A DNA stretch of 52,692 bases from Bacteroidales bacterium UBA1722 (GCA_002317435.1 DCIQ01000194.1:1-52692); one strand, 5' to 3'; positions 6,926 to 35,873 are shown, counted from the stretch's first letter. A program made the numbers and translations. The notes: generated from the sequence alone by a model not told the origin.

Positions 6926-6933
6926 TAACTTTG
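6926..6933 (+). promoter_or_regulatory. Bacteroides-type -7 box (TAacTTTG) for the divergent DUF6057-like/susCD operon
   Basis: TAACTTTG on the plus strand. The first in-frame ATG downstream is at 6984. Confidence 0.4.
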
Positions 6934-6983
6934 CCAACAAGAGCAATTGCTTGGGATATCATGTTATTGATGCGAATGGGATT

Positions 6984-10011: not shown

Positions 10012-10055
10012 CTATTTATAGTTCAATACATTATTTCCAACTAATCACTATATTT

Positions 10056-13067: not shown

Positions 13068-13087
13068 CATCATGATGATTTAATAAT

Positions 13088-14725: not shown

Positions 14726-14805
14726 CGTCTGATCATCCGTTCCGGTCATATCATTACGGCCGTATCCTTCTGCGGGAGCAGATGGGTGCGGCCTTTTCTT
14801 CGTGA

Positions 14806-18435
<3,630 letters not shown>

Positions 18436-18444
18436 TGGGTGTCA

Positions 18445-18578
18445 CCATACCGTCTTTTCGTTTCTGGCATGCTTGTTGATGATGGTATGTCAGCATAGAT
18501 AATATGATGGTTAGTGGTGAATAAAAGATTTTGGTTGATAGAGAAGAGTGACTGATGTCCGTCAGTCACTCTTTTTTT
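18445..18578 (+). repeat. Left copy of a ~135-nt direct repeat flanking the NRPS island
   Basis: Hand alignment of 18445.. against 34182.. gives 84 of the first 95 nt identical (~88%). Both copies start ccataccgtcttttcgtttctggca and both end in a hairpin plus T-run. Confidence 0.8.
18546..18578 (+). terminator. Intrinsic terminator after the GH2 gene
   Basis: Perfect 10-bp stem gagtgactga/tcagtcactc, 6-nt loop, then TTTTTTT. Confidence 0.75.
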
Positions 18579-18699
18579 GTCCGTACCCTTCGTGCCGCCT
18601 GTTCGCATCTTATACCGGTGTTGCCGGATAATGCATAAATAATTATCTTCGCGTATTGGAAGCATTGATAAATATTATCTTTTTTTGTTACTGGTGATT

Positions 18700-19002
18700 A
18701 TGACTGACATTATTGAAAATACTCCCGAGAGAATCGTTATCGTCCTCCGGGGTGAACTGGATACACTTGCCGCCAAGTCTTTTGCGGCGGAAATGGAGCC
18801 TGTGATGGCTGATGCAGGGAAGCGGATAATTCTGGATTTTACCGGGTTGGAGTATATCTCGAGTGCCGGCATGCGTACCATCCTCCTGCTGCAGAAAACC
18901 GCCGGTGCCAAGGGTGGGAAGGTGAGTATCAAAGGCATGAGCGAGGATATCCGTCAGATATTCCGCATGACAGGGTTTGACCAAATAATAGAAATATTAT
19001 GA
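18700..19002 (+). CDS. STAS-domain protein (SpoIIAA/RsbV-like anti-sigma-factor antagonist)
   Basis: 100 aa with the typical STAS layout (IVIVLRGELD, ILDFTGLEYISSAGMRTILLL, FRMTGF). The conserved phosphorylatable Ser position is retained (S54 in ISSAG). The stop overlaps the NRPS start (ATGA). Confidence 0.85.
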   Translation: MTDIIENTPERIVIVLRGELDTLAAKSFAAEMEPVMADAGKRIILDFTGLEYISSAGMRTILLLQKTAGAKGGKVSIKGMSEDIRQIFRMTGFDQIIEIL

Positions 19003-22000
19003 TTTATCCGCTTTCACAGACACAGATGGGCATTTACGTATCGAGCATAAATGCCGGTTCGGAAGGAAAATACAATAACAATTTTCTGTATGGAATCGAC
19101 GATGATGTCGATACGGGCAGGCTTGCGGCTGCCATAGACAGGGTCGTGGCGGCTCATCCGGCACTGTTCGCGCGTCTGACCGTGGATGATGACGGAGATA
19201 TGGCGTTCGAGGAGCACAACGATGAAACGTTCCATACGCTGGAGATGAATGTCGGCAGTCTCGACGAGGTGCGTGACCGCATAGGGGCGGACTTCGATCT
19301 GATGAATGACCGGCTGTTCCGTGTCGAAATTTATCATACCGGGCAGGGCACGTTCCTCTACATAGACATACACCACATCATATCTGACGGCATGACTTTC
19401 GCCCATCTCATAGAAGAGATCGGAGAAGTGTATGACGGCGGGGAACCGATGAAGGAGAAAAAGACCATTTTCGACCTTAACCTTGAGGAACAGGCAGTCC
19501 GTAAAAGTGAAGCGTACATGGAGGCGAAGCAGTGGTACGAAGAGCATTTCGCCGCCGCATCCGGAGTGGATTCGCTCCCCCGGAGTGACATGCAGGTGAA
19601 CGGGCCGTCAGCCGTCGGGACATCGGGTATCGGCATATTGGAACGCACTCTGAATATCGACCGTGACGCTCTGGGCAAATTGTGCGGTGAGGCCGGTGTC
19701 CGTGAAAGCGTATTCTACACTGCGGCATTCGCATTCCTGCTGAGCAAGTTCGCGGGGAACGGCGAAGTTCTGTTCTCCACCATCTATCACGGACGTCCGA
19801 ACAGGGAAGACAGGGATGCGTACGGCATGATGGTGAAGACTATGCCCGTTTATCTGGATATGGAGTCCCGGCCTGCCGTGGCGGACCTGCTGCGCTGTAT
19901 GTCGCAGCAGATCAGGGAGAGCCGCAGGCACACCTGCTATTCCTTCGCGGAAATATGCTCGGACCTGGATCTGAAGTCGGACATCCTCTTCTCCTATCAG
20001 GACACCCTCAACACCTTCCCGCTGAAACTTGACGGCAAATTGCAGCAGGATATGCATATCCCGATGCCGCGTCCGGGAATGGTCTTCAATGTAATGCTCC
20101 TGCAGACTGCCGACGGGCCGGTCATCGAGTTCAAGTACCGGAAGGACATGTTCTCCCGGGCCCTCATTCAGGATATGACCCTGAGTTATGAGAAGATACT
20201 CTCGGAATTTCTTCTCCACGAGAAACTCTGTGAAATCTCCATCGTCAGCCCGGAGCAGCAGAAGATTCTCGACACTTTCCACAATACTGCAGCCGCGGAC
20301 GTCCCCTACAAGCGATTCTACGAACCCATAGAGCATTTCGCGGAGGTCGCTCCCGATGCCGCCGCCATCGTCGCCTGTGACAGGACATTATCATACGGGG
20401 AACTGAACGGGGAAGCAAACCGGGTCGCCCATTCCCTGATGTCCCGCGGAGTAAAGCACGGTGACCGTGTCATTCTCCTCCTTCCCCGCACCAGCCGGGT
20501 CATCTGCTGCATGTTCGGTGTAAGCAAGGCGGGTGCCGCGTACATTCCTTGTGATCCCGCTTATCCGGCCGAGCGCATCAACCTCATCCTGGAGGACAGC
20601 GGGGCGAAGTATATCATAACCACGGATGATCATCTGGCAGAGCATGGCGACAAGGCCATCCTCGTCGATGATTTGTTTGACGGCGGTCTTCCGACAGTCA
20701 ACCCGCGGCTCCCGTCCATAACCCCCGATGATTTGGTGTATCTGATTTACACCTCGGGCTCGACCGGCCGGCCGAAGGGCGTGATGCTGCGCCACGAGGC
20801 GATATGCAACTACCTTTATGATCATCCTGCGAACCGCCATATCCATGCGCTCATGACTGAAGGGGTGAAGTCATACCTGTGTCTCACCACCCTCTCCTTC
20901 GACATGTCTCTGAAGGAGTTCGGCGTGGCTCTTCACAACGGCCTCACCTGTGTGCTTGCGAATGAGGAGGAGACCGAGAACCCCCTGCTCCTCGCCGATC
21001 TGATCAGGCGTACGGGAGTGGAGGCGCTCAATGCCACGCCTTCACGTCTGATGGGTTATATGGAGATACCCGAATTCGAGGGGGCCGTGAATAACTGCAA
21101 GGTCATCATGAGCGGCGGAGAAAAGTACTCAGCCACACTTTTGGACAAGTTGCACGGCATCCCCGGACTCCGCATCTTCAACACCTACGGCCCTACGGAA
21201 ATCACGGTCAGCAGCAATGCCGCCGAACTCACCGACACATCGTTCATCACCATCGGACGCCCGCTGCTCAACTACCACGAATGGGTGGTGGATGCCTGCG
21301 GCAATGAACTCCCCATAGGCGTGACCGGGGAACTCTACATCGGTGGCATCGGTGTTGCCGAAGGCTATAATAACCTTCCCGAGAAGACGGCGGACGCATT
21401 TGTCGAATACAGGGGAATGCGTACATACAAGTCCGGGGACTATGCCCGCTGGACACGTGACGGCCATATAGAGGTACTCGGCCGCCGGGACGGACAAATC
21501 AAACTTCACGGTCTTCGCATCGAAATAGGAGAGATCGAGTCCTGTATCAATAAATATCCGGGCATCAGGCAGTGTGTGGTCAAGGTCTGCCATATCAACA
21601 ATGACGATTTTCTCGCGGCGTACTTTACGGCCGGCGAACAGATTGATACCGATAAGCTGAAAGCTGAAATCAGCAATACGCTGACTCACTATATGGTGCC
21701 AAGTGCATTCATGCAGCTGGAATCTTTCCCTCTGACCCCGAACGGGAAAACGGATGTGAAGAACCTGCCGGTGCCCGAAATGATGCCGGCGGTGAATGTG
21801 GAGAAGTCATCAACGGGGCCGGTGGCGCTGAACGATCTGGAAAAGCAGCTGTATGACATCGTTGCGGGTGCATTGAAACTCCCTCTCATCGGGGATTCGG
21901 AAGACGCGGTTCCGGCTTTCGGCGTCACTGACGCACTCTCGTCCGCGGGTCTGAGTTCGCTTTCGGCCATTAAGGTCGCAACGCTGATTTACAAACGTTT

Positions 22001-25000
22001 CGGCATACAGTTGAAATCACGGGAGCTGATGGACGGCGCGACTCTGTTCAGTATCGAGAACCTGATTCTGAAGCGTCTTCTCTCCGCTTCGGACAGTGAA
22101 AACCACGATGCGGAAGAAACCGCTCCTCATCCCGAAAAGAAGAGGTCGGAAACGGAGTTGCCGCTTTCCTTCACCCAGCAGGGTGTCTATACCGAGTGTC
22201 AGGCCAACCCAGATGCGGTGCAATACAATATTCCCGAGTGCATAAAAGTGCCGGACGGTATTACTCCCGAACAGCTGGAGACAGCCGTAAGAAAGGTGGT
22301 GGCCGCGCACCCTTATCTCTTCTGTCACTTTGTCGAAGGTGACAACGGCGATATCGTACAGAAACCGTCGGACAGCACCAGCTTCCGGATACCGCACATC
22401 CAGTGTTCCGCTGAAGGGTTTGAACAGGAGAAGAAAAACTTCGTCCGTCCGTTCCATCTGGCGGAAGGGCCGCTTTTCCGTTTCGAAACGGTGACGGTCG
22501 GCGGCACGCTCCATTTGTTGACGGACATGCATCACCTCATAAGCGACGGCGCTTCGGTGGATCTGTTCATGCATCAACTCTGCCGGGCACTTGACGGCGG
22601 GGAGATAGAGGAGGAAAAATATTCATACTATGACTTCGTCGCCGACCAGCATATCAGTCGGGAGACGGAGGATTTCTTCGCAGACCGCATGGCCAGAGTG
22701 GAGAATTCTTCGCAGCTTATTCCGGATGTATTCGAACAGAATCTGCCGCACACCGAAGGGACGGTTTCCGCACCTTCCGACTTCGCCCCCGTGCAGGCTT
22801 GGGCATCAGAAAATGGCGTGACTCCCGCTGCCGTCTATCTGTCGGCGGCATACTTGTGTGTCTCACGATATCTTTGCGAAGACAACGTAAACCTCTGCAC
22901 CATTTCCAATGGCCGCAGCAACCTCCAGGTGGCGGACACGATGGGTATGTTTGTGAACACTCTCGTGCTTCAGTCATACGTCGACCATCAGGTCTCCTGT
23001 CTTGATTTCGTCAGAACATGTGCCCGGGACTTCGCGCTGACCATCGAAAATGAGAATTATCCGTTCGCGAAGATAGCGGCGAAGTATGGATACCAGCCCA
23101 ATATCGCATTCGCCTATCAGGTCGGCGTGCTCGGCGATTACAGGACGAAGGCGGGAGAACTGGAAATCCGGAGTCTCAGCCTCGAAGTTGCGAAGATCGG
23201 GGTGAACATAACGGTCCGTGGCGAGGATGCGACCGGCTATCGCATAAAGGTAGATTATGATGAAGCTCTGTATTCCCGATACATGATGCAGCAGCTGGCT
23301 GTCAGTATGGAAAATGCCGTTCGGGGAATAATCAGTCGGGAGAAGCTTGGTGATGTCAGCATCACTGATGAGGAACAGTGGAGTGTTCTGGATAAATTCA
23401 ATGCACCGCTCGACTTCGGTTATGACCGGGATGATACGGTCGTCACGAAGTTCAAACGTGTCGCCCGGCAGTATCCGGACCAAAAGGCTTTGGTCTATAT
23501 GGACAAGTCTTACACTTACGGTGAATTGGATAAGTTTACGGATCGTCTTGCGGTAAAGATTCGTGAGCGGATGCTTCCGTATATTCAGGAGGTTGAACGT
23601 CTGCAGGTGGAGCAGGACGGAACAAAACTCACCGATGTGGTGGTCTCCATCCTCATTCACCGTAACGAATGGATGCTCTTGGCTTCACTTGCGGTTTTGA
23701 AGGCAGGATGCGGATATCAGCCGCTGGATCCGAGTTATCCTCAGGACCGTCTGAATTTCATGGCAAAGGATGCCGGCGCCCGTCTTCTCATCGTGGATGA
23801 GGACTTGCGGGATCTTCTCAACGAGTATGACGGGGACGTGCTCCTGACCGGGGACATCGCTGACCTTATAGCCGACACCCCGGAAGGAAGCGTCGATTTC
23901 AGCCGCAAGAACGGTCTTGTCACGCTGCTCTACACTTCCGGTTCCACGGGTGTGCCTAAAGGGTGTATGCTTGAGCACAGAAACCTCGTCGCCTTCGGTC
24001 ATGCCACGCGTACGACCCTGGACATCTCGACCGACAGCCGCATCGCCGCATACGCATCGTTCGGCTTCGATGTGAATATGATGGACATGTACTGCTCCAT
24101 CATGAATGGAGGTACCATGTACATCATCCCGGAAGATATGCGCATGAATCTCGATGTCCTGCATGACTACATTGAAGACGAAGGTATCACTCAGATATTC
24201 ATGACCACGCAGGTGGGCGTGCAGTATCTGGAAAACTATCCCGAGTCCAAGTCTCTCCGCCGCCTTGCGATGGGGGGCGAAAAACTGCGGGCCGTGGATC
24301 CAGGCAAGCTTTCATATAAGATATATAATGGTTATGGACCCAGTGAGATGACCTGCGGTGTCAGCATGTTCACCATCGAAAACTGGGAGCCGAACATTCC
24401 CATCGGACGCCCTATGCCCACACTGCAGGGATATGTCGTCGACAAGACGGGGCACCGTCTCCCGGTGGGCGCCGCCGGTGAACTGTGGATAACAGGTCCT
24501 CAGGTGGCCCGCGGATACTTGAACCGTGCGGACAAGACAGCCGAGGCTTTCTCCGGGAATCCGTTCATCGACCACGCCAGGACTGCGGTCGATTCGGAGC
24601 GTCAGCTCTGCTCGCGCATCTATCACAGCGGCGACATCGTGCGCTACCGCGAAAACGGAGACATAGAGTTCGTCGGACGCAAGGACGGTCAGGTGAAGGT
24701 TCGCGGTTTCCGTATCGAGCTGAAGGAGGTCGAAACTGTCATCCGTGAATTTCAGGGTGTGAAGGACGTTACCGTTCAGGCATACGACTATGAGGACGGC
24801 GGCAAGTATATCGCGGCATTCGTAGTCAGTGACACTGCGGTCGATACCGATGCGCTGAACGCTTTCATCAAGAGTCAGAAGCCTCCCTATATGGTGCCTG
24901 CCGTCACCATGCAGATCGAGAAGATCCCTCTGAACGTAAACCAGAAGGTGGACAAGAAGGCACTTCCCAAACCGGAAGCCAAAAAGGCCGAATATGTCGC

Positions 25001-26492
25001 CCCGAAGGGGAAGACGGAGGAAGACTTCTGTCAGATATTCTCAGAGGTGACGGGTGTCGAAAAAGTGAGTGCCGAGGATGATTTCTTCGAGATCGGCGGC
25101 AGTTCCATTCTGGCTCTGAAGGTCGTTCTTGCCGCAGGAAAGAAGGGATACGGTATCGTGTATAATAACGTGTTCTCCTACACGACTCCAAAGGCGATGG
25201 CGCAGTTCGTGACAGGAAAAAGCGACGATGAAGACTCCGAATCCCCGACATGTCCCGAAACTCCCGGGACCGTCAGAGAAGTGGATGAAGACGGCTATGA
25301 CTATAAGGATGTTAATGCTTTGCTGCGCGGAAATACTATGGAGGCCTTCATGAACGGAGGAAGACAGCCTCTCGGTGATGTCCTTCTGACAGGCGGGACA
25401 GGCTTCCTCGGTGTACATGTACTGCATGATCTCATTGAAAATTATGACAACAGGATTTATTGTCTGGTCCGCGGCGGTAAGGATAAGAGTGCGCAGGCAC
25501 GTCTTGAAGAGTATCTGACCTTCTATTTCGGCAAGTCATACGCCGAATTGACAGGCGGTCGCATTGTGGTCATCGAGGGTGATGCGACAGACCCGGCGAC
25601 CTTTGACAAGGTCATGGAAACGATGGGCGACCATTCCGGAGACTGCACCTGTATAAACTGCGCCGCCTGTGTGAAGCACTTCGCCAAGGGTAACGAGATC
25701 GAGCAGATAAACGTCGGCTCGGTACGCAACATAGTGGATTGGTGTATCCGGACCGGTAACAGACTTGTTCATGTCTCTACGGAGAGCGTGTTCGGCAAGA
25801 ATGATTTCTCGACGTTACCACGCGACTTCCGATATGACGAGCACATACTCTACGGAGGTCAGCAGTTCAGGTACAACCAGTACACGATGTCCAAGTTCGA
25901 GGCTGAAGTGCTCATCTATGAGGCGATTCTTCAGCATGGACTGAATGCCAAGGTTATGCGTGTCGGAAATCTTGCACCGAGATTTGAGGATGGAGGTTTC
26001 CAGATAAATGCCGAAAGCAACAATATGATGAACCTGTTCAAGGCATATATTGCACTGGGCAAGATTCCGTTCAGCGCTATGGATGCCAAACTCGAGTTCT
26101 CGCCGATAAATTATGTCGCACATGCGATATTGCTGCTTGCCGAAACTCCCCGGGAGTGTGTCTGCTTTATGCCGAGCAACCACCACGTCTCACTTCAGGG
26201 CGATATCGTGACGGATATCGCCGGGACACTTCGAAAACCTCTGGAACTGGTGGAGGCCGATGTCTTCGCGAAGGCGGTGCAGGAAGCTCTCGCCTCACCG
26301 GAACTGGTTGACAGCATGCGCCCGTTTATGGCTTATCAGAGCGGCGAATCGAACAGCAGGATGAGAAGTGCAGGTCCCGGAGATTTCTCGAATGCCTTCA
26401 CCATTCAGGTCCTTTACCGTCTCGGCTTCCGTTGGCCGGTGACAGGTACCGGATATGTCGCCCGATTTACAAAGAATCTCTATGGCCTTTGA
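18999..26492 (+). CDS. Non-ribosomal peptide synthetase, two modules plus terminal reductase (C-A-T-C-A-T-R)
   Basis: C1 has HHIISDG (nt ~19371). A1 has YTSGSTGRPKG, NTYGPTE, GELYIGG, YKSGD, GRRDGQIKLHGLRIE, PNGKTD. T1 has AGLSSLSAIK. C2 has MHHLISDG (nt ~22530). A2 has YTSGSTGVPKG, NGYGPSE, GELWITG, YHSGD, GRKDGQVKVRGFRIE. T2 has FFEIGGSSILALK. R has LLTGGTGFLG (nt ~25383) and YTMSK. Confidence 0.95.
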   Translation: MIYPLSQTQMGIYVSSINAGSEGKYNNNFLYGIDDDVDTGRLAAAIDRVVAAHPALFARLTVDDDGDMAFEEHNDETFHTLEMNVGSLDEVRDRIGADFDLMNDRLFRVEIYHTGQGTFLYIDIHHIISDGMTFAHLIEEIGEVYDGGEPMKEKKTIFDLNLEEQAVRKSEAYMEAKQWYEEHFAAASGVDSLPRSDMQVNGPSAVGTSGIGILERTLNIDRDALGKLCGEAGVRESVFYTAAFAFLLSKFAGNGEVLFSTIYHGRPNREDRDAYGMMVKTMPVYLDMESRPAVADLLRCMSQQIRESRRHTCYSFAEICSDLDLKSDILFSYQDTLNTFPLKLDGKLQQDMHIPMPRPGMVFNVMLLQTADGPVIEFKYRKDMFSRALIQDMTLSYEKILSEFLLHEKLCEISIVSPEQQKILDTFHNTAAADVPYKRFYEPIEHFAEVAPDAAAIVACDRTLSYGELNGEANRVAHSLMSRGVKHGDRVILLLPRTSRVICCMFGVSKAGAAYIPCDPAYPAERINLILEDSGAKYIITTDDHLAEHGDKAILVDDLFDGGLPTVNPRLPSITPDDLVYLIYTSGSTGRPKGVMLRHEAICNYLYDHPANRHIHALMTEGVKSYLCLTTLSFDMSLKEFGVALHNGLTCVLANEEETENPLLLADLIRRTGVEALNATPSRLMGYMEIPEFEGAVNNCKVIMSGGEKYSATLLDKLHGIPGLRIFNTYGPTEITVSSNAAELTDTSFITIGRPLLNYHEWVVDACGNELPIGVTGELYIGGIGVAEGYNNLPEKTADAFVEYRGMRTYKSGDYARWTRDGHIEVLGRRDGQIKLHGLRIEIGEIESCINKYPGIRQCVVKVCHINNDDFLAAYFTAGEQIDTDKLKAEISNTLTHYMVPSAFMQLESFPLTPNGKTDVKNLPVPEMMPAVNVEKSSTGPVALNDLEKQLYDIVAGALKLPLIGDSEDAVPAFGVTDALSSAGLSSLSAIKVATLIYKRFGIQLKSRELMDGATLFSIENLILKRLLSASDSENHDAEETAPHPEKKRSETELPLSFTQQGVYTECQANPDAVQYNIPECIKVPDGITPEQLETAVRKVVAAHPYLFCHFVEGDNGDIVQKPSDSTSFRIPHIQCSAEGFEQEKKNFVRPFHLAEGPLFRFETVTVGGTLHLLTDMHHLISDGASVDLFMHQLCRALDGGEIEEEKYSYYDFVADQHISRETEDFFADRMARVENSSQLIPDVFEQNLPHTEGTVSAPSDFAPVQAWASENGVTPAAVYLSAAYLCVSRYLCEDNVNLCTISNGRSNLQVADTMGMFVNTLVLQSYVDHQVSCLDFVRTCARDFALTIENENYPFAKIAAKYGYQPNIAFAYQVGVLGDYRTKAGELEIRSLSLEVAKIGVNITVRGEDATGYRIKVDYDEALYSRYMMQQLAVSMENAVRGIISREKLGDVSITDEEQWSVLDKFNAPLDFGYDRDDTVVTKFKRVARQYPDQKALVYMDKSYTYGELDKFTDRLAVKIRERMLPYIQEVERLQVEQDGTKLTDVVVSILIHRNEWMLLASLAVLKAGCGYQPLDPSYPQDRLNFMAKDAGARLLIVDEDLRDLLNEYDGDVLLTGDIADLIADTPEGSVDFSRKNGLVTLLYTSGSTGVPKGCMLEHRNLVAFGHATRTTLDISTDSRIAAYASFGFDVNMMDMYCSIMNGGTMYIIPEDMRMNLDVLHDYIEDEGITQIFMTTQVGVQYLENYPESKSLRRLAMGGEKLRAVDPGKLSYKIYNGYGPSEMTCGVSMFTIENWEPNIPIGRPMPTLQGYVVDKTGHRLPVGAAGELWITGPQVARGYLNRADKTAEAFSGNPFIDHARTAVDSERQLCSRIYHSGDIVRYRENGDIEFVGRKDGQVKVRGFRIELKEVETVIREFQGVKDVTVQAYDYEDGGKYIAAFVVSDTAVDTDALNAFIKSQKPPYMVPAVTMQIEKIPLNVNQKVDKKALPKPEAKKAEYVAPKGKTEEDFCQIFSEVTGVEKVSAEDDFFEIGGSSILALKVVLAAGKKGYGIVYNNVFSYTTPKAMAQFVTGKSDDEDSESPTCPETPGTVREVDEDGYDYKDVNALLRGNTMEAFMNGGRQPLGDVLLTGGTGFLGVHVLHDLIENYDNRIYCLVRGGKDKSAQARLEEYLTFYFGKSYAELTGGRIVVIEGDATDPATFDKVMETMGDHSGDCTCINCAACVKHFAKGNEIEQINVGSVRNIVDWCIRTGNRLVHVSTESVFGKNDFSTLPRDFRYDEHILYGGQQFRYNQYTMSKFEAEVLIYEAILQHGLNAKVMRVGNLAPRFEDGGFQINAESNNMMNLFKAYIALGKIPFSAMDAKLEFSPINYVAHAILLLAETPRECVCFMPSNHHVSLQGDIVTDIAGTLRKPLELVEADVFAKAVQEALASPELVDSMRPFMAYQSGESNSRMRSAGPGDFSNAFTIQVLYRLGFRWPVTGTGYVARFTKNLYGL

Positions 26493-29376
26493 TTTTTCAA
26501 ACAAAATCGTCGGGGTTCTGGTCGAACGGACGCACGACATAGTGGATGCCGCTGAAGCGATAATCCGCGGTGGCGGCGTTTTCATGCCGATCGACAAAAG
26601 CTATCCTCAGGACCGTGTGGACTACATGATGCAGGATGCCGGGGCCGCTCTGCTTCTGACGACTGACATTCCGAAAGGAAACGGGTGTCTGGACTGGGGA
26701 GGCAAGGATATGGATGATGCGGCGATGATATTATATACTTCCGGAACTTCGGGACGGCCCAAGGGGGTGGTGCATACGCGGCGTTCCATCGAGGCGATGA
26801 TCGCTGCCACCCTGCAAGTCGCTCCCGTCAGGCCGGAGAGCCATGTCGCCATCGTCGCCGGTTTCACATTCATCGCATCTCAATTCCTGATTTTTACGGC
26901 ATTGAAACAAGGAGCCGCGATACATGTCGTCGATGATGCGACGAGACAGGATTTTGATTTGTTGTACGATTACATCAGGGAGCACAGCATAGACATAGTG
27001 TTCCTGCCTCCCGCCATAGCGACCGTCATGGCGGAGGAGTATGATATGCGGGGGATAACGATTCTGTCCGCGGGTGACAAGTTGCGCAACTTCAAATCCA
27101 AATATCCCTGTGTGATTTGCAATATGTACGGCAGCACGGAGGGTGTCATCGTCACTGCGGGGAAGATAACTGGAGACGAACCGAACATCTCCATCGGCAA
27201 ACCGTTGGATGGAATCGACGTGCGCATCGTTGACGAACAGTTGAACGATGTCCCCGAAGGTGAAGTCGGTGAACTGATATACAGCGGAGCCGTTCAGGCC
27301 AAAGAATACCTGAATCTTCCCGAACAGACCGCAGGCAAGTGGTTCACGGGTGAAGACGGCCGGCGCTGGTTCAGGATGGGCGACCGGGTGAACCGCCGGG
27401 ACGACGGTAATCTGTATTATGTGGGCCGTACCGACAATATGGTAAAGATACGCGGATTCCGCGTGGAGACGGGCGAGGTCGAACGACAGATTTCACGTGT
27501 GGTGCCATCCGTCGAGGTGGCCGTCGTAATGCGCACGGTGCATGGTATTGACCATCTGGTGTGTTTCTATGAGAACGACAGTGAGATTCAGACTGATGTG
27601 GTGAAGGAAGAAATCGCGAAATCGCTTGCCGAGTACATGATCCCCGATATATGGGTGCGTCTGGATCGCCTGCCCCGTAACGCCAACGGAAAGGTCGTGC
27701 GTAGGGAACTGCCTGTTCCGGCCTCGGGGGCGGACAAGCTCAGCATCGTATTCAACGAGGTCGAGATGCGTGTCGTGGAGGCTGCCAAACTTATTGTCGG
27801 AGACACCATATCGCTCGATGACAATTTCTTCGAATGCGGGGGAACATCCCTTGGCGCCATCAAACTGGCGACCCTGCTCAAGACCATGGGCATCCATATA
27901 ACCGGTTCGCAGATAATGCAGCTCAGGACACTGCGTTTGGTAGCCAAGGAGGCGAAGGCTGATTATGAACGCCTTTGGACCTCTGAACAGTACCGTGAAA
28001 TATGCGACAGTTTCGCGGCGAGAGGCGAAAAAATCCGGAAGGTCCTGCCTCTTTCTACGGAACAGGAAGACATACTCATCCGCTATCTGATGCATCCTGA
28101 TGCCACCGCTTACCGGAATGTATTTCTGCTCAAGCTGGACAGCCGTGTCGATAAGGATATTCTGCGCAGTGTCATAAATGAAGTCTCCGACAGGTATGAA
28201 GTTCTCCGTTCTGCGATCGTCATTCACCACAAGGCGCCCTTTCAGCAGATAATCACAGACAGGTGTGTGCCCCTGGATATTTATGATGATATCGCTGACA
28301 CGGACATAAGTTATGTGAAGAGCCTTTACAGGCGATATATGCACACTCCTTATGATCCGGAAATATCGTCCCTGATGCGTTTCGGTTACGTTCCTCTCTC
28401 CGACGGCACTTCGTTTCTGCTGCTCCTTGTAAATAATGTCAGCGTGTCGATGAGCATAGCCCGCCGCACGATTCATGATGTTATGGACCGACTTTCCGGA
28501 CACTTCCCGGATGACCTGTCGATAACCGGGTGGCGTGATCTGGCGGCACTTGCATTGAGCAGTGAAAGTCAGAATGTGACGGGGGGTGCTGACGTCGAAA
28601 TAAAAAAGCCTGTTGACAACGGATTGATAAGGGTCTATTCTCCGTTGAAGGAGGGTAAACCCCCGGTGACGTTTGTCCATACCGGAAATACCGGGAGTGA
28701 TGCGTACTATCGTCTTGCCGACAGGATAGGAGAGAATTGTGCGTTTTCTGTCATTGAACCATATAATCTGTTCCATCAGGATGACATACGGCATGGTATC
28801 GGGAATATCGCACGGAAATATGTGGAAATCCTCCGTGATTATCAGCCGGAGGGTCCTTACATACTTGGGGGATGGTGCTATGGAGGTGTTGTCGCACACG
28901 AGATGGCCTGCCAGCTCCAAGCGATGGGGGAGGAGGTCCGCCATCTGATAATGTTTGACTCCCACGCGCTGACGGACGACAATCTGACATCTATGGCGAG
29001 GGATATGCAGGGAACCGTCGACCGTGAATATTTCGAGACTTGCCCGCTCTTCGAAGATCTTCGCGGACAGGGACTTCTGGAGGCGATGATCAATAACTGC
29101 GCACAGGTCTGCCATGACCTCCTGCATCACACTCCTTCCATGTTCCATGGAGCCACGACATATTTCAAACCCCTCCGTACACCTGTGGCAGCTACGGGCA
29201 ACGCTCTTGAATATTGGAAGAGGATGATGGAATTCGATGCCGGAAATTACGAGAATTTCTGTGATCGGAATCAGTTGCGTATTATCAATACCCCTCATGA
29301 GCACGATCTTATGATGGACGATGAATCGCTGGCCGTCACGGTACCGGCCATCAACGGAATACTTGGTCATCATTAA
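26482..29376 (+). CDS. Non-ribosomal peptide synthetase, A-T-(degenerate C fragment)-TE
   Basis: The A domain starts near core A2 (no LTYxEL region). It has ILYTSGTSGRPKG, NMYGSTE, FRMGD, GRTDNMVKIRGFRVE, NANGKV. T has FFECGGTSLGAIK. A ~190-aa C-domain N-lobe follows, with VNNVSVS in place of HHxxxDG. The alpha/beta-hydrolase TE has GGWCYGG. The ATG at 26482 overlaps the upstream stop (ATGGCCTTTGA); an alternative ATG lies at 26455. Confidence 0.9.
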   Translation: MAFDFSNKIVGVLVERTHDIVDAAEAIIRGGGVFMPIDKSYPQDRVDYMMQDAGAALLLTTDIPKGNGCLDWGGKDMDDAAMILYTSGTSGRPKGVVHTRRSIEAMIAATLQVAPVRPESHVAIVAGFTFIASQFLIFTALKQGAAIHVVDDATRQDFDLLYDYIREHSIDIVFLPPAIATVMAEEYDMRGITILSAGDKLRNFKSKYPCVICNMYGSTEGVIVTAGKITGDEPNISIGKPLDGIDVRIVDEQLNDVPEGEVGELIYSGAVQAKEYLNLPEQTAGKWFTGEDGRRWFRMGDRVNRRDDGNLYYVGRTDNMVKIRGFRVETGEVERQISRVVPSVEVAVVMRTVHGIDHLVCFYENDSEIQTDVVKEEIAKSLAEYMIPDIWVRLDRLPRNANGKVVRRELPVPASGADKLSIVFNEVEMRVVEAAKLIVGDTISLDDNFFECGGTSLGAIKLATLLKTMGIHITGSQIMQLRTLRLVAKEAKADYERLWTSEQYREICDSFAARGEKIRKVLPLSTEQEDILIRYLMHPDATAYRNVFLLKLDSRVDKDILRSVINEVSDRYEVLRSAIVIHHKAPFQQIITDRCVPLDIYDDIADTDISYVKSLYRRYMHTPYDPEISSLMRFGYVPLSDGTSFLLLLVNNVSVSMSIARRTIHDVMDRLSGHFPDDLSITGWRDLAALALSSESQNVTGGADVEIKKPVDNGLIRVYSPLKEGKPPVTFVHTGNTGSDAYYRLADRIGENCAFSVIEPYNLFHQDDIRHGIGNIARKYVEILRDYQPEGPYILGGWCYGGVVAHEMACQLQAMGEEVRHLIMFDSHALTDDNLTSMARDMQGTVDREYFETCPLFEDLRGQGLLEAMINNCAQVCHDLLHHTPSMFHGATTYFKPLRTPVAATGNALEYWKRMMEFDAGNYENFCDRNQLRIINTPHEHDLMMDDESLAVTVPAINGILGHH

Positions 29377-31114
29377 TGGAAATCAGAAGGTGAAACGGAA
29401 AGTTTTTTTGATCAACAAGGCATTCAACAAATACCTGTGGGCTTCCATTCTGGGAGTGGCAGCCTCGCAGATCGCGAATATCGTCGATGCGTCGCTGGTG
29501 GGAAACATCATCGGGGCCGACGGGCTGGCGGCTGTCGTAATCAGCAAGCCGGTTCTTCAGGCCATTTTCGCCATCTCCTGTTTTTATGCCGTGAGCTGCA
29601 GCATGATCGCCGGTATGGCTTTGGGTAATGGCGAAAAGGCCGCCGCCGACTCACAGTTCTCATTCTCCATGGCGGCAAGTCTGGTATTGGGAATAGTGAT
29701 TTCCGCCGGGGGGCTGATTTTCATCGAACCCCTGATGGACCTGTTCTGCAGATCACAGGAGCTTCGTCCCATGGCCAAATCATTTATGACGGTGACCATA
29801 CTGTCGGCCCTTCCCCAGCTGTTCATGTACACACTGCACCGGTTTGTCACTACGGACGGCTCACCGAAACTGATTTCCAAGGCTGTAATCGTGGGAAACC
29901 TGGTCAACGTCGTTCTGGATGTCGTCTTTATGAAATATCTGAACATGGGCATAGCCGGCGCCGCATGGGCTACGTTCATCATGTATATAGTGTGTTGTGT
30001 CATGGTGATTCCGCATTTCCGTAAGAAGGATACGCTTCGTCTGGCATTCGGACGATGTCGGAAACTTATCTCCGTCAGACAGATACTGACCTTGGGAACA
30101 CCGATTTTCCTCTCTACCGTGCTCCTTTCCGTGCAGTACACGTGCTACAATGGCATCGCCGTCACATATCTGGGCAAATCCGGGCTCATCGCCCTGGCGG
30201 TTTGTCTGCAGCTGTTCAGTTTCTCCATGATTATCCTCACCGGAACTTTGCAAGCCATTCAGCCTGTAGGCGCCATACTCAAAGGTATCAATGACTCGAA
30301 GGGGATAATCATGCTTTTGGGAAAAGCTTATAAGTTTCTGGCGGTCTGTCTGGCGGTCTATTCACTGCTGATTGTTATCTTCCCTGTGGAGATATCCGGT
30401 TTCCTGGGGGTGAAAGATGGAAGTGCGCTCCCGACCGTCATGGCGGCTTTGCCTGCTTTCTCTCTGAATATCGTGATGCAGGCGCTGCTCTACAACCTGA
30501 TGCCTGTCTATCAGTTCTACAATCATCACCGCATGGCACTGTTTCTGTCCGTAGGTCAGACATTGCTGCCGATTGCCGGTTTCTGGGCACTGGCGCATTT
30601 TCAGACGTTCAACCCGTGGTATGGTTTTTTTCTCGGTCAGTCAGTGACAGCCATTGTCCTTTTGGTGTCATCACTGTTCATCAGCAGGAAGGAAAATTCG
30701 ATTCCTGTGTTCCTGGTTCCCCGCGGAAATGGATTCCCGTCGCTGGAGATGTCGTTCGGCTACTCCGAAGAAGCGATGCATAAGGCATTTGACGAGATGA
30801 GCGGGTGGCTTGGGCAGCAGAATCTTTCGAAGAGCATAATCTTCAAGGTCCGTATTCTGGCAGAGGAACTGATGTCCAATATAATCCGTCACAGCGGACA
30901 GAAAGACAAGAATGCGTTCGCCGACGTGCGTCTGTTTATGCAGGAGGATGCAGTCATATTCGCCCTCACGGATGACGGCAAACCGTTCAATCCCATTGAA
31001 AACAAGGACAAGGGGTATGGCCTGATGATAGCCAACGGAGTCGCAAGTGACATTTCATACAAATATCAATTCGGCCAAAATATGACCAATGTAATCATAA
31101 ATACAGAAGCGTGA
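29321..31114 (+). CDS. MATE family efflux transporter fused to a C-terminal RsbW/SpoIIAB-like GHKL (HATPase_c_2-type) domain
   Basis: ~440 aa with 12 hydrophobic segments and MATE-like repeats (IVDASLVGNIIGADGLAAV). The C-terminal ~130 aa carries N-box AEELMSNIIRH, LTDDGKPFNP and KGYGLMIANG. The start is uncertain: the ATG at 29321 overlaps the upstream gene by 56 nt, while the in-frame GTG at 29390 (VKRKVFLINK) lies 14 nt after the upstream stop and may be the true start. Confidence 0.8.
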   Translation: MNRWPSRYRPSTEYLVIINGNQKVKRKVFLINKAFNKYLWASILGVAASQIANIVDASLVGNIIGADGLAAVVISKPVLQAIFAISCFYAVSCSMIAGMALGNGEKAAADSQFSFSMAASLVLGIVISAGGLIFIEPLMDLFCRSQELRPMAKSFMTVTILSALPQLFMYTLHRFVTTDGSPKLISKAVIVGNLVNVVLDVVFMKYLNMGIAGAAWATFIMYIVCCVMVIPHFRKKDTLRLAFGRCRKLISVRQILTLGTPIFLSTVLLSVQYTCYNGIAVTYLGKSGLIALAVCLQLFSFSMIILTGTLQAIQPVGAILKGINDSKGIIMLLGKAYKFLAVCLAVYSLLIVIFPVEISGFLGVKDGSALPTVMAALPAFSLNIVMQALLYNLMPVYQFYNHHRMALFLSVGQTLLPIAGFWALAHFQTFNPWYGFFLGQSVTAIVLLVSSLFISRKENSIPVFLVPRGNGFPSLEMSFGYSEEAMHKAFDEMSGWLGQQNLSKSIIFKVRILAEELMSNIIRHSGQKDKNAFADVRLFMQEDAVIFALTDDGKPFNPIENKDKGYGLMIANGVASDISYKYQFGQNMTNVIINTEA

Positions 31115-32901
31115 GACGAATAGCAATAACACTCATCCTCTCCGTCATCGTGTTTGCGGCCACAATTCTGGTCTCAATCATGTACATATCCAGAAAGAGC
31201 CTCGAAACAGCGGATTATTTCAACAATCTCGCTCTGGACAATTTTCAGGATGAACTGAATGATGAAATTTTCCTGACCAGGCAGTCCGCTTTCAGTTTCC
31301 TTACCGGAATTCCTTCCGTATATGTAGGGAAGGACAGTGCCAGCATCATCATCGATGAAAAGGAACTGTCCGAGTTCAAGGATGCGATCCATGACGTTCT
31401 GATACAGTTCATGAGAGTCAATAAGTATTATCGGAATACGATGTTCATCATCGACAGGGATATATGCCGCAAATACTTCCCATGTGAAGATACTGCTTAC
31501 ATCGGGCATTGTACGAAGGGATTTGTCCCTGCCGTCCTGCAGGGTGACAATGCATTGTATGACCTGTCCGACCAGTATGACTTTATGGGTTCCGCCCGAT
31601 ATCAACAGTTGAAAAGAGAAAGAAAAATTCTTTGGACCGCACCTCAACCTGTCTCTCCGGAGGAAATGAGATTGTTGATACTCCAAGTGCCGATGACTTT
31701 GAGCAACGGACAGTTCGCAGGTGCATTCACCGTGTCGCTGGATATCGGGACGGTAAATGAAAAATTGAAGAATTACCTGCCGTTCGGTGAGGAGTATTCC
31801 GCCATATTCCTTGTTGACGAAAACGACAATATATTTTCCTCCTGTCCGGAATGGATTATGGAGCCGGACAGCCAGGAAGAAATTCGTAATTCCACCGATC
31901 TGCTGCAGAGACACGACGAGGGCGCCGAGCATAATATCATTAAAATCGGTGAGGATGAATACTATGTATATCAGCGTGATGACCTTTCATTGCCCTGGAG
32001 AGTCTTCACGGCCAATAACTCGAAAGCCATTTATCACGACGCGAAGCATGTGGTCAACGCCATGATTCTCTCCTCAGTCACGGGAATGCTTATGATGCTT
32101 GTCTGCTGCGTCGTCATTTTTCGTCAGACACGAAAGAATCTGCGCAAGAAAGCGGCCATAGAGGAGGAGCTGCGTATGGCTGCGATGGTGCAGACCTCGA
32201 TGCTGAAGCCGTCCACCTGTACCTTCTCACATAATTCCTCACCGATCATCCTGAATGCCTTTGTGCAGCCGGCCAAAAAGGCGGGAGGAGATCTATATGA
32301 TTATATCGAGAAAGATGGAAAACTTATCTTCTGTATCGGTGACGTCTCCGGAAAGGGGATGCCGGCGGCACTGTTCATGACCCAGGTGGTTTCACTCTTC
32401 CGCAATGCGGTGCGCCGTACTTCGGAACCGTCTGAAATAGTATGTCAGATAAATGACGTGCTTTCAGACAATTCCGAGATGACTTTCTGTACCTTCTTTG
32501 CAGGTGTGCTGTGCGGGGATGAAATAACGTTCTGCAATGCAGGCCACAATCCCCCCGTGTTCATTTCTTCCCGCTCCTCATATCTGAAAGTGCGTCCCAA
32601 TATCGCGATCGGGCTGATGGAAGGCTATCCATACCGGTCGGAGACCATTTCCTTCCGTCCGGGGGACAAATTGGTGCTCTATACCGATGGAGTCACTGAA
32701 GCAAAGGACAGAAACCATAGACTGTATGGTGAGGAGAGACTTCTCAAGGTGCTTGAATCCATTTCGCGAAGTTCGGGTGCCGAAACCGGTTCATGGATCA
32801 ACACGGCCATCAGAAAATCCATGGAACAGTTCACACGACACGCCGAGCAGAGTGACGACATCACGATAATGAGTATCGAAAATTCACATATTATGTCCTG
32901 A
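31111..32901 (+). CDS. Transmembrane PP2C/SpoIIE-family serine phosphatase with ~300-aa extracytoplasmic sensor domain (RsbU-like)
   Basis: TM1 is IAITLILSVIVFAATILVSIMYI, followed by a ~300-aa loop and TM2 VVNAMILSSVTGMLMMLVCCVVIF. The SpoIIE domain has GGDLYDY, GDVSGKGMPAALFM, LYTDGVTEA, SDDITIM. The GTG start overlaps the MATE stop (GTGA). Confidence 0.85.
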   Translation: MRRIAITLILSVIVFAATILVSIMYISRKSLETADYFNNLALDNFQDELNDEIFLTRQSAFSFLTGIPSVYVGKDSASIIIDEKELSEFKDAIHDVLIQFMRVNKYYRNTMFIIDRDICRKYFPCEDTAYIGHCTKGFVPAVLQGDNALYDLSDQYDFMGSARYQQLKRERKILWTAPQPVSPEEMRLLILQVPMTLSNGQFAGAFTVSLDIGTVNEKLKNYLPFGEEYSAIFLVDENDNIFSSCPEWIMEPDSQEEIRNSTDLLQRHDEGAEHNIIKIGEDEYYVYQRDDLSLPWRVFTANNSKAIYHDAKHVVNAMILSSVTGMLMMLVCCVVIFRQTRKNLRKKAAIEEELRMAAMVQTSMLKPSTCTFSHNSSPIILNAFVQPAKKAGGDLYDYIEKDGKLIFCIGDVSGKGMPAALFMTQVVSLFRNAVRRTSEPSEIVCQINDVLSDNSEMTFCTFFAGVLCGDEITFCNAGHNPPVFISSRSSYLKVRPNIAIGLMEGYPYRSETISFRPGDKLVLYTDGVTEAKDRNHRLYGEERLLKVLESISRSSGAETGSWINTAIRKSMEQFTRHAEQSDDITIMSIENSHIMS

Positions 32902-34181: not shown

Positions 34182-34317
34182 CCATACCGTCTTTTCGTTT
34201 CTGGCACACTTGTTGACAATGGTATGTCAGCATAGATGATGTGATGGTTGATGGTGAATAAATGGTTTTGGTTAATGGAAAAAAGGTGACTGATAAAACT
34301 TATCGGTCACCTTTTTT
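34182..34317 (+). repeat. Right copy of the ~135-nt direct repeat flanking the NRPS island
   Basis: See the left copy at 18445..18578. Same orientation and same internal 6-bp complement (catacc/ggtatg). Different terminator hairpin sequence at the 3' end. Confidence 0.8.
34284..34317 (+). terminator. Intrinsic terminator closing the island
   Basis: Stem aggtgactgat/atcggtcacct (one G-T wobble), 7-nt loop, then TTTTTT. Confidence 0.7.
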
Positions 34318-34438
34318 CTGTATATGTATTATTTCCAGACGATTTTTGTCCTCCTGTCTCATAAATGTAATCAGTGCATATTTGGCCAAATGCAATGTCG
34401 ATCGGTGCCTTTTGGCTGATTATCTTAATTTTTATCCT

Positions 34439-34446
34439 TATATTTG
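34439..34446 (+). promoter_or_regulatory. Bacteroides-type -7 box (TAtaTTTG) for the AAA ATPase gene
   Basis: TATATTTG lies 21 nt before the ATG at 34467. Confidence 0.4.
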
Positions 34447-34466
34447 CCCATCTGACAAGGACAAAC

Positions 34467-35873
34467 ATGAAAGAGTCAATTATCGGTAGAGCTGCAGAGA
34501 AAGCAGAACTTCAGAAAATTTTCGAATCCGGGAAAGCTGAGTTCGTGGCGATATATGGAAGAAGGCGTGTAGGAAAAACATTCCTTATCAAGGAATTTTT
34601 TGAAGATTGTCTCGTGTTCTCCGTAGCAGGACTTGCCAAAGGGAACACGAGATTACAGATAAAGAATTTTTACAAGACAGTTCAGAGATATGATTCGTCA
34701 TTAAAGGAGTCACCAAAGGACTGGATAGATGCATTTGATATCCTGATCAGATATATTGAATCCCTTGGAGGGGGGCGAAAAGTAATACTTCTTGATGAAC
34801 TTCCTTGGATGGACACTCCAAAATCCGGGTTCATTCCCGCCTTGGAGCATTTTTGGAATGGATGGGCATCATCTCGAAAGGACGTTGTCCTCGTGGTCTG
34901 CGGATCAGCGACGTCATGGATGATGGACAAGCTGATAGATGACCATGGCGGTCTCCATAACAGGTTGACAAAACGAATATTCCTCAGGCCGTTCACTCTG
35001 TCCGAGTGCGAAAGTATGCTGAACAGTATGGGTGTGAATCTTTCAAGGTATGAAATTTCCATCTGCTATATGATTCTTGGCGGCATCCCTTACTATCTCA
35101 GCCTCATTGATTCGGGGAAGAGTCTTACACAAAATATTGATAGCCTGTTGTTCTCCGATGATGGAGATTTGCACAATGAATTTGAGAATCTCTATTCTGC
35201 GCTTTTCAAGAATTCGGACGATTACATCAAGGTCGTTACAGCACTCAGCGAAGTAAGGGGCGGGCTGTCAAGATCGGAAGTCGTTGAAAAAACAGGCATC
35301 CCAACAGGAGGGACTCTCACAAAGATTCTGAAGAACCTCAGTTCGTGCGGTTTCGTCCGAAGGCATAAGGACATCGGAGACGGGAAAGAGGATATTTTCC
35401 AACTTGTTGATTTCTATTCGCTTTTCTATTTTAAATTCCTCCGTGACAGGCATTCATACGAAGATGGCTATTGGATGTCGATACAGGGAACCTCCAAGTT
35501 CTACACTTGGGCCGGGCTTTCATTCGAAATACTTGCATTGCAGCACGTACATCAGATCAAGCAGTCACTGGGCATCAGTGGCGTAATGACAAGCGAATAC
35601 TCCTGGAGGAGCCCCAATGCACAGATTGACCTTGTCATTGACCGTAAGGATAGAACTGTAAACCTTTGCGAAATGAAGTTTTCAGAGGATGACTATCATA
35701 TAGACGAAGAGGAAGATGCGAAGCTCAGACGCAGGGTCTCGTCTTTCAAAGAGAACCTTGGAAAAGAGAGCAAATCCATTCGATTGACTTTTGTGACCAC
35801 ATATGGACTTGCAGGCAGCAGATATAACAGCAGAGTCAACGATATAATTATCCTTAACGATCTGTTCAAGTAA
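34467..35873 (+). CDS. AAA-type ATP-binding protein (Arch_ATPase/DUF234-like)
   Basis: MKESIIGRAAEKAELQKIFESGKAEFVAIYGRRRVGKTFLIKEF (Walker A GRRRVGKT), Walker B VILLDELPWM, and a C-terminal DUF234-like region. Visibly lower GC than its neighbours. Confidence 0.75.
   Translation: MKESIIGRAAEKAELQKIFESGKAEFVAIYGRRRVGKTFLIKEFFEDCLVFSVAGLAKGNTRLQIKNFYKTVQRYDSSLKESPKDWIDAFDILIRYIESLGGGRKVILLDELPWMDTPKSGFIPALEHFWNGWASSRKDVVLVVCGSATSWMMDKLIDDHGGLHNRLTKRIFLRPFTLSECESMLNSMGVNLSRYEISICYMILGGIPYYLSLIDSGKSLTQNIDSLLFSDDGDLHNEFENLYSALFKNSDDYIKVVTALSEVRGGLSRSEVVEKTGIPTGGTLTKILKNLSSCGFVRRHKDIGDGKEDIFQLVDFYSLFYFKFLRDRHSYEDGYWMSIQGTSKFYTWAGLSFEILALQHVHQIKQSLGISGVMTSEYSWRSPNAQIDLVIDRKDRTVNLCEMKFSEDDYHIDEEEDAKLRRRVSSFKENLGKESKSIRLTFVTTYGLAGSRYNSRVNDIIILNDLFK

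Follow-up and report, generated by a model that had tools for sequence, protein, structure and literature searches.

A candidate sigma-less partner-switching-type module with a MATE exporter fused to an RsbW-type GHKL domain in nonribosomal peptide synthetase clusters of Bacteroidales

The window analyzed here, a 52,692-nt stretch of DNA from the uncultured gut organism Bacteroidales bacterium UBA1722 (GCA_002317435.1 DCIQ01000194.1:1-52692), carries in its operon region (18700-32901) two nonribosomal peptide synthetase (NRPS) genes together with genes encoding a STAS protein, a MATE exporter whose C-terminus is a GHKL domain of the RsbW/SpoIIAB type (MATE::GHKL), and a membrane-bound PP2C phosphatase. 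Comparison of related loci indicates that the MATE::GHKL fusion is old and widespread, and that the conserved pair consists of the NRPS and MATE::GHKL, STAS and PP2C being variable accessories. The view that STAS, GHKL, and PP2C make up a sigma-less phospho-module of the partner-switching type dedicated to the cluster is partly supported by the analysis, and it is plausible that the exporter itself is the output of the switch.

Domain architecture of the operon

A preceding sequence-only reading had described five same-strand genes with overlapping or almost touching junctions, and the coordinates of the five + strand open reading frames (ORFs) agree with that description (Table 1). Every motif quoted in that reading was found again in the translated ORFs, and profile searches support all three of its signaling domains, STAS, GHKL, and PP2C, the latter two being supported also by their predicted folds. 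The Pfam assignments of the five operon genes pass the curated cut-offs, with the single exception of dCache_1 (see below).

The STAS protein matches Pfam STAS (1.5e-17) and STAS_2 (6.4e-15), as well as the NCBIfam family of anti-sigma-factor antagonists TIGR00377 (66.9 bits, cut-off 53.45). As expected of a partner-switch antagonist, it consists of a single domain, and the loop that precedes helix 3 contains a conserved Ser that could be phosphorylated. This residue had been taken to be Ser54, an assignment that has to be corrected: among 12 orthologues position 54 is either S or A, and it is S55, G57, and R59 that are invariant (motif I-S-S55-A-G-M-R). Furthermore, S55-x-G57 aligns with S58-S-G60 of SpoIIAA. 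Since Ser55 is invariant and aligned with SpoIIAA Ser58, it is Ser55, and not Ser54, that is the predicted phospho-acceptor.

The exporter gene product matches MatE (5.8e-21) and, C-terminally, HATPase_c_2 (2.2e-10, residues 484-589 of the long ORF, 41.1 bits with a cut-off of 27.4). Given that 120 homologues begin about 24 codons inside the longest ORF, covering 94-96% of it, translation most likely starts at the GTG at 29390, located 13 nt 3' of the NRPS2 stop codon. The AlphaFold2 (AF2) model of the fusion, built from 64 sequences, has a pLDDT of 84 and a pTM of 0.79. In Foldseek searches, the MATE part (about 450 residues) matches PfMATE, VcmN, and DinF with TM-scores of 0.82-0.87, with ClbM (4z3n) as a further structural match, and the best non-MATE match of the C-terminal domain is Bacillus subtilis RsbW in the RsbV/RsbW complex (6m37_C, E 7e-5, TMt 0.82). 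At the sequence level, a search of the PDB with the window GHKL domain (phmmer) returned only weak matches to VraS, RsbW, and SpoIIAB. Pfam, AF2, and Foldseek therefore concur with the initial description of a MATE protein with 12 transmembrane helices (TMs) and an RsbW/SpoIIAB-like GHKL C-terminus. The names of some NCBI entries, which would make the exporter a Wzx/MurJ-type flippase, were rejected, as MATE structures match far better.

The alignment of 64 members of the MATE::GHKL family, 47-93% identical to the window protein, shows that the N box (E493, N497), the G1 box (D528-x-G530), and the G2 box (G544-L545) of the GHKL domain are invariant, and ATP binding by this domain looks selected for. 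Likewise, L442 and P444 in the linker and Asp33 in TM1 of the MATE part are invariant, and D177 is nearly so. The spacing of D33 and D177 resembles that of D41 and D184 in PfMATE, and the two residues may correspond to the acidic coupling residues that DinF/PfMATE-type transporters have in TM1 and TM5 of the N-lobe. The ATP lid is short, with 16 residues from G1 to G2, and in this respect closer to the catalytic domains of the VraS/DesK type than to RsbW. In known MATE structures both termini are cytoplasmic, which should place the GHKL domain in the same compartment as STAS and the catalytic domain of PP2C. In place of the free soluble kinase of about 140-160 aa that is usual in partner switches, the GHKL domain is found on the C-terminus of a 12-TM MATE protein in all family members. 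Neither does the arrangement correspond to that of SulP-type transporters, in which STAS is fused to the transporter in cis, since the window encodes STAS on its own and has a GHKL domain in the fused position.

The last of the five genes encodes a protein matching SpoIIE (4.6e-45), in which the metal-binding residues D394, D411, D526, and D583, belonging to the motifs GGDxYD, GDVSGKG, YTDG, and SDD, are invariant in 51 homologues. Its AF2 model has a pLDDT of 85. The PP2C domain retrieves RssB, the RsbU domain of Rv1364c (3ke6), SiaA, SpoIIE, and RsbX as Foldseek matches, and the periplasmic part retrieves the dCache domain of Tlp3 (TMt 0.71-0.73; 0.65-0.73 when mmHK1S is included). The Pfam match to dCache_1 (1.3e-6, 28.5 bits) lies under the cut-off of 45; the same family, PF02743, is recorded in precomputed annotations on many of the phosphatase homologues. 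Hence, the two-TM protein with a SpoIIE/PP2C domain and an extracytoplasmic domain of about 300 aa that had been anticipated is recovered, and AF2 and Foldseek assign a dCache fold to the extracytoplasmic part.

Regarding the synthetases, NRPS1 contains two Condensation (C), two AMP-binding (A), and two PP-binding (T) domains, followed by NAD_binding_4, which corresponds to a terminal reductase (R). Its top NCBIfam match is the aureusimine NRPS AusA (NF047350), with 976 bits against an equivalog cut-off of 2500. NRPS1 comprises the order A-T-C-A-T-R plus an extra N-terminal C domain, and it falls outside the AusA equivalog. NRPS2 contains AMP-binding, PP-binding, a partial Condensation domain, and a Thioesterase (TE) domain; the Condensation match, between T and TE, spans only the first 135 of the 456 profile positions, and the best AMP-binding stretch begins at profile position 160. 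As the relatives L002 and L166 keep the same NRPS2 architecture, the partial C domain is not the consequence of a local frameshift. Terminal reductase domains free peptide aldehydes, which can cyclize to pyrazinones or pyrazines (PMC7586950), and the reductase of NRPS1 predicts the release of such an aldehyde. The extra C domain suggests an acyl or amino-acyl starter, and the cluster probably makes a small acylated peptide of two or three residues, which the reductase would set free as an aldehyde. The A-T-C-A-T-R core ending in a reductase is shared with AusA (aureusimine/phevalin) and other reductase-terminated NRPSs; the likeness to AusA is limited to the release mechanism, and the window differs from it by the N-terminal C domain and by a second protein of the type A-T-(partial C)-TE.

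None of the 33 window ORFs run through Pfam (all non-nested ORFs of at least 150 aa plus STAS) matches the Sigma70 family, and this family is also absent among those matched by at least two of the 89 unannotated ORFs (140-330 aa) in the flanks of 39 related loci, so that the proposed lack of a sigma factor in the operon and the window is upheld and no sigma factor recurs at these loci. Similarly, there is none in the annotated related clusters of L001, L002, and L164-L169. The cognate sigma factor that is encoded with the module in canonical systems was thus not found within the window and the locus flanks.

Distribution of the fusion and its linkage to NRPS genes

Among about 5.8 billion proteins searched, 334 relatives of MATE::GHKL were found, and nearly all those listed carry MatE plus HATPase_c_2 and originate from metagenome-assembled genomes (MAGs) of Bacteroidales. 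When the linker and the GHKL domain were used as query against 1.84 billion cluster representatives, 414 matches were obtained. Of the 150 best, about 72 have a length of roughly 570 aa (555-630 aa) and align with the query through their C-terminus, each representing a cluster at 50% identity; the members that were spot-checked combine MatE with HATPase_c_2. The same search retrieved a giant repeat protein (P0244, 7219 aa), 45 separate stretches of which resemble the final 37 residues of the GHKL query, probably a spurious hit. Full-length fusions were located at 39 loci (L004-L042; one genome per species), all in Bacteroidales MAGs, many of which come from horse feces and other animal guts. 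An NRPS directly adjoins the fusion in 31 of these loci, and five of the other eight are truncated contigs.

STAS and PP2C occur around this pair in shifting arrangements. In accordance with the expectation that the regulators co-occur with the synthetases in relatives, one or both of STAS and PP2C lie directly beside MATE::GHKL or the NRPS in no fewer than six gene orders (Table 1) and in a distant lineage. The latter is represented by contig L108 (92-9798), whose MATE part is only 23% identical and which has the order NRPS - MATE::HATPase_c_2 - HAMP-PP2C - STAS - HAMP-PP2C::HATPase_c_2 - phosphopantetheinyl transferase (PPTase). Given that adjacency survives such rearrangement and divergence, the functional link is strongly evidenced. 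A STAS-centered metagenome scan with the five closest STAS sequences added five STAS genes at least 50% identical to that of the window, four of which are directly followed by an NRPS (L084, L085, L087, and L088) and one by a sensor PP2C (L086). Between the window and L016, identity is 79% for GHKL, 62% for MATE, 56% for STAS, 50% for PP2C, and 37% for NRPS1. The far lower identity of NRPS1 makes it appear that recombination has joined the genes for regulation and export to different synthetases, and the difference between GHKL and NRPS1 points to strong purifying selection on GHKL. In L108, the PPTase gene is followed by a Phd/PIN toxin-antitoxin pair.

Two types of GHKL domain can be distinguished. 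Identity to the window domain is bimodal (at least 47% in type A and 28-38% in type B), whereas the identity of the MATE part is continuous (53-94%), which indicates that GHKL has been replaced on a stable MATE backbone. The GHKL domain thus appears to be under its own selection. Type A is found only with group-1 STAS (five loci with group 1 and none with group 2; one and seven, respectively, where type A is absent), which hints at co-evolution, the loci not being phylogenetically independent. The two types meet in L034, where the fused domain is of type B and a free GHKL of 159 aa encoded after MATE::GHKL (L034:11720-12199) is of type A. The G1 box of this free domain reads D-S-C, and a sequence search of the PDB with it gave no match. 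This protein and P0242, P0350, P0357, and P0386 represent free GHKLs of 124-159 aa, 43-55% identical to that of the window, and MatE proteins of 750-790 aa with tandem HATPase_c_2. Such free and tandem proteins look like snapshots of GHKL gain or replacement on the exporter. PP2C::GHKL fusions are present in L035 and L108.

Clusters with type B have the order NRPS - 818-aa NRPS - beta-lactamase fold - 420 aa - MATE::GHKL, and their 10-kb flank ends within the NRPS, so that STAS and PP2C upstream are to be counted as not seen rather than absent. The beta-lactamase-fold protein (360 aa) located between NRPS and MATE::GHKL was observed in L021 (7632-9988) and at the same positions in L013, L018, L022, L023, L025, and L027. 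The 420-aa protein has no Pfam match and shows a weak likeness to NRPS condensation domains (22.7% over 282 aa). Another protein that recurs beside MATE::GHKL is an outer-membrane beta-barrel of about 650 aa (OMP_b-brl_3; L016:10300-12261, L034:12212-14164, and L001:8007-9980), which could be the outer-membrane leg of an export route; the window cluster has none.

STAS-PP2C pairs are also found away from NRPS clusters. In many assemblies, a pair with a STAS 55% identical to that of the window lies at a conserved housekeeping locus (Table 1), and there are 11 further similar places. No stand-alone RsbW/GHKL gene was found within 10 kb of these off-cluster pairs, and their kinase must therefore lie elsewhere; the MATE-fused GHKL domain would be the obvious candidate. 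More distant environmental STAS genes do have a stand-alone RsbW nearby. The off-cluster pair is followed by genes for a 125-aa protein with a signal-peptide-like N-terminus and for a protein of 742-746 aa without Pfam match. In other Bacteroidales assemblies, a HATPase_c_2 protein (154 aa), a STAS protein (47% identical), and a RelA_SpoT-domain protein (356 aa) are encoded in succession (L170:9508-11418 and L171:6736-8646), a STAS of this kind being seen on at least 23 contigs. This arrangement may be another sigma-less partner switch, possibly acting over (p)ppGpp synthesis.

Proposed mechanism and alternative explanations

The domains could work together as follows. A periplasmic ligand would act on the dCache domain and change the activity of PP2C, which would take the phosphate off STAS Ser55. 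Unphosphorylated STAS would then dock on the GHKL domain, tethered to TM12 by the short conserved linker, and docking would alter the activity of the exporter by either relieving or imposing autoinhibition. Finally, the GHKL domain would re-phosphorylate STAS with ATP and so reset the switch. In this scheme we infer that GHKL is active as a kinase and interacts with STAS, in which direction transport is affected, and what the ligand and the product are. A module dedicated to the cluster, in which a transporter replaces the sigma factor as output, is the explanation that we tentatively favor, counting it as possible rather than probable. With greater reserve, the system may be proposed to constitute the first partner switch with a transporter in cis as the sequestered partner, in which STAS docking, set by the dCache-PP2C protein, opens or closes peptide aldehyde export, and whose regulatory cassette (MATE::GHKL, STAS, and PP2C) is portable and recombined with different synthetases. 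If so, gut Bacteroidales could respond to an external cue by releasing a bioactive metabolite in a matter of seconds and without new transcription.

Several observations weigh against such an exporter-gating switch. The very short ATP lid leaves it doubtful whether the GHKL domain is an active kinase. Second GHKL domains occur free, PP2C-fused, or in tandem on MATE, and in L108 the G2 box is missing from the copy on MATE but kept in the one on PP2C, which suggests that a MATE-borne GHKL can be a docking module and not a kinase. The triad as a whole is not what is conserved, STAS being adjacent in 11 and dCache-PP2C in 8 of the 39 loci. In three loci (L007, L014, and L041), MATE::GHKL is in a housekeeping context with no NRPS. 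A close relative, whose contig is represented by L166/L167, has the order STAS-NRPS1-NRPS2-PP2C (STAS 74% and PP2C 50% identical) and no MATE::GHKL in about 30 kb, so that STAS and PP2C can accompany a synthetase without the exporter. Altogether, the evidence fits equally an exporter that is the output of the switch and one that serves as its sensor or anchor.

In the latter case, MATE would be a sensor of flux or substrate, or a membrane anchor, for the GHKL kinase, and STAS would be the output, acting on a different target (the synthetase, for example, or some unlinked regulator) in the manner of SypA, HmpV, and RbaV; phosphorylation of STAS would then combine product flux with the periplasmic dCache signal. 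Flux-sensing kinases coupled to transporters are well established, as exemplified by BceAB-BceS and CbrA, and this precedent counts in favor of such a role. The L166/L167 relative, which retains STAS and PP2C with the NRPS and has no MATE::GHKL nearby, fits it better than an exporter output does, STAS-PP2C pairs also occur alone, and the invariant ATP-binding motifs of GHKL are more in keeping with a working kinase than with a mere docking site. Furthermore, non-canonical systems use unphosphorylated STAS as output on unknown targets (PMC8256260), the target in Anabaena being a glycosyltransferase (PMC13555669). However, no candidate target of STAS recurs besides the GHKL domain and the NRPS genes, all members of the family keep GHKL on MATE, including those with no STAS gene beside it, and the MATE-fused domain of L108, having lost its G2 box next to an intact GHKL on PP2C, looks like a binding target. 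We regard a sensor or anchor role as the main rival explanation, somewhat less likely than an exporter output.

Less credit can be given to a membrane-tethered anti-sigma factor, in which GHKL would hold an unlinked sigma factor, STAS would free it, and cluster transcription would be the output, the fusion serving only for localization. Bacteroidota are not known to possess factors of the sigma-B/sigma-F type, the usual targets of RsbW, which speaks against it. In its favor, HATPase_c_2 proteins with a partner antagonist of the TIGR00377 type canonically act as anti-sigma factors (PMC8256260), and the fold of the domain is closest to RsbW. The sigma factor search covered the 52.7-kb window, the flanks of the 39 loci, and the annotated related clusters and found none there, and localization alone poorly explains a 12-TM exporter fusion conserved over about 72 clusters at 50% identity; this explanation is accordingly held to be improbable. 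Even more so is the notion that GHKL is a non-signaling structural appendage and STAS-PP2C an independent pair that lies nearby by chance in some genomes. The absence of STAS and PP2C from the visible flanks of most loci, the STAS-PP2C pair at a housekeeping locus, and the short ATP lid would agree with it, whereas the persistence of adjacency across six or more rearranged gene orders and in a lineage with a 23% identical MATE, the invariance of the N, G1, and G2 boxes, the off-cluster pairs without a kinase gene of their own within 10 kb, and the 79% identity of GHKL compared with 37% for NRPS1 between the window and L016 make it very hard to credit.

Boundaries of the operon and genomic context

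The operon follows a terminator-like hairpin that appears to mark its 5' boundary, and its promoter should be located in 18579-18699. A scan for sigma-70 promoters gave 24 sites where 17.8 are expected and is uninformative, this consensus being different from that of Bacteroidota promoters. Downstream of the PP2C gene, the first strong intrinsic-terminator-like hairpin is the likely 3' end of the transcription unit. Ahead of it lies a Y_phosphatase3-family gene, whose membership in the operon is doubtful; it was rejected as a component of the system, since no related locus examined carries a homologue. It is followed by a gene for an ATPase_2/AAA protein with a weak MarR-like match (34374-35873). 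Upstream of the operon, a polysaccharide-utilization locus extends over 2889-18435 and includes a hybrid two-component regulator with AraC output (2889-6833, - strand), DUF6057, a PD40/DPPIV-like protein, SusC/SusD (10056-14725), and a GH2 beta-galactosidase with an N-terminal ricin-type lectin domain (14809-18435). The other neighbors in the window are housekeeping genes.

Table 1. Features of the window operon and arrangements of MATE::GHKL, STAS, and PP2C genes in related loci.
Feature	Position or locus	Strand	Basis and remarks
Terminator-like hairpin	18545-18578	+	11-bp stem, 6-nt loop, T6; 3' of GH2 gene; read from sequence
STAS, single domain, 100 aa	18700-19002	+	Pfam, NCBIfam
NRPS1, 2497 aa, C-A-T-C-A-T-R	18999-26492	+	Pfam; overlaps STAS by 4 nt
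NRPS2, 973 aa, A-T-(partial C)-TE	26455-29376	+	Pfam; overlaps NRPS1 by 38 nt
MATE::GHKL, longest ORF	29321-31114	+	ORF call
MATE domain, 12 TM, residues 1-435 (numbered from GTG 29390)	29390-30694	+	MatE, AF2, Foldseek
TM12-GHKL linker, short, conserved	30695-30739	+	64-sequence alignment, AF2 secondary structure
Cytoplasmic RsbW/SpoIIAB-type GHKL domain, residues 451-574	30740-31114	+	HATPase_c_2, motifs, Foldseek
dCache-PP2C, whole gene	31111-32901	+	GTG start overlaps MATE stop
Sensor part of PP2C protein: TM1 (~aa 2-26), periplasmic dCache-like (~aa 66-303), TM2 and helical linker (~aa 309-364)	31111-32214	+	AF2, Foldseek
Cytoplasmic PP2C (SpoIIE-family) domain	32215-32901	+	SpoIIE Pfam, invariant Asp, Foldseek
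Y_phosphatase3-family protein, 383 aa	32961-34112	+	Pfam 7.7e-17; 60 nt 3' of PP2C gene; possible sixth gene
Strong intrinsic-terminator-like hairpin	34275-34321	+	20 pairs, then T run; first strong one downstream
STAS-NRPS1-NRPS2-MATE::GHKL-PP2C	window		
STAS-MATE::GHKL-NRPS	L004, L010, L039		
STAS-NRPS-MATE::GHKL-(PPTase)-(outer-membrane beta-barrel)-PP2C	L016, L034		
NRPS...MATE::GHKL-STAS-PP2C	L025, L026		
PP2C-STAS-MATE::GHKL-NRPS	L029, L040		
MATE::GHKL-STAS-NRPS	L038		
Off-cluster STAS-dCache-PP2C pair with Pep_deformylase, TPR protein, LDcluster4	L165:9681-14492, L168:10001-14840, L169:9647-14486, L086:4424-5861		

Significance and comparison with known systems

Accounts of how bacteria control their secondary metabolism mostly concern transcription. 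If confirmed, a phospho-switch that acts directly on an exporter would represent a fast post-translational layer of control, and partner switching would gain a secondary transporter as a novel type of output. The size of the family (about 72 clusters at 50% identity, and 39 genomes at the species level) fits a general mechanism better than a curiosity. The dCache ligand and the phosphorylation state of STAS would offer a biochemical handle on a large and wholly uncultured family of Bacteroidales NRPSs from the guts of herbivores and other animals, and the soluble parts of STAS, GHKL, and PP2C are small and easily studied in vitro. The reshuffling of the regulatory genes with respect to divergent synthetases suggests, in addition, a portable "regulated export" cassette with potential for engineering. 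A literature search found no description of an RsbW-type domain fused to MATE and no partner-switch module in an NRPS cluster; sigma-less partner switching itself is not new, and what is apparently undescribed is the MATE fusion and the NRPS setting.

The closest counterparts of the module are RsbV-RsbW-RsbU and SpoIIAA-SpoIIAB-SpoIIE of B. subtilis, which comprise the same three protein families in tightly clustered genes, and the window GHKL domain shares the topology of RsbW (beta-alpha-alpha-beta-beta-lid-alpha-beta-beta). In contrast to the Bacillus modules, that of the window has no sigma factor, its GHKL domain is on the C-terminus of a 12-TM MATE protein instead of being free and soluble, its ATP lid is about 10-20 residues shorter, its phosphatase is membrane-bound with a periplasmic dCache sensor, and the whole lies inside an NRPS cluster.

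Partner switches without a sigma factor include SypE/SypA of Vibrio fischeri, BtrU/V/W of Bordetella, which acts on type III secretion, RbaV/W of Rhodobacter, and HmpU/V/W of Nostoc (PMC8256260), as well as the HenR-STAS module of Anabaena, which has a glycosyltransferase as its target (PMC13555669). In such non-canonical switches, among them SiaABCD of Pseudomonas, STAS is cycled by a kinase and a PP2C phosphatase onto a non-transcriptional or unknown target, and the PP2C domain of SiaA is among the best structural matches of the window phosphatase domain. Nevertheless, none of these systems has a kinase-like domain fused to a transporter or is set in a secondary-metabolite cluster.

Regulation of a transporter by STAS is known from MlaB in the MlaFEDB system. 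In SLC26/SulP proteins, a STAS domain regulates the transporter in cis (PMC8256260). The window differs from both in that STAS is a separate and phosphorylatable protein, the transporter carries a putative STAS-binding GHKL domain, and this transporter is a MATE antiporter rather than an SLC26 or ABC protein. As for the exporter, MATE genes are likewise found inside biosynthetic clusters in the case of ClbM (colibactin), MbnM, GntT, and WgkD, the last three of which give weak NCBIfam matches to the window MATE; unlike the fusion described here, these are plain MATE proteins of about 450 aa without a signaling domain. Coupling of a transporter to a kinase has precedents in CbrA, a fusion of SLC5 with a histidine kinase, and in BceAB-BceS, both of which involve histidine kinases with a DHp domain that is absent in the window, and a precedent for fusing the domains of a partner switch to one another is provided by Rv1364c of Mycobacterium tuberculosis, which unites RsbU, RsbW, and STAS.

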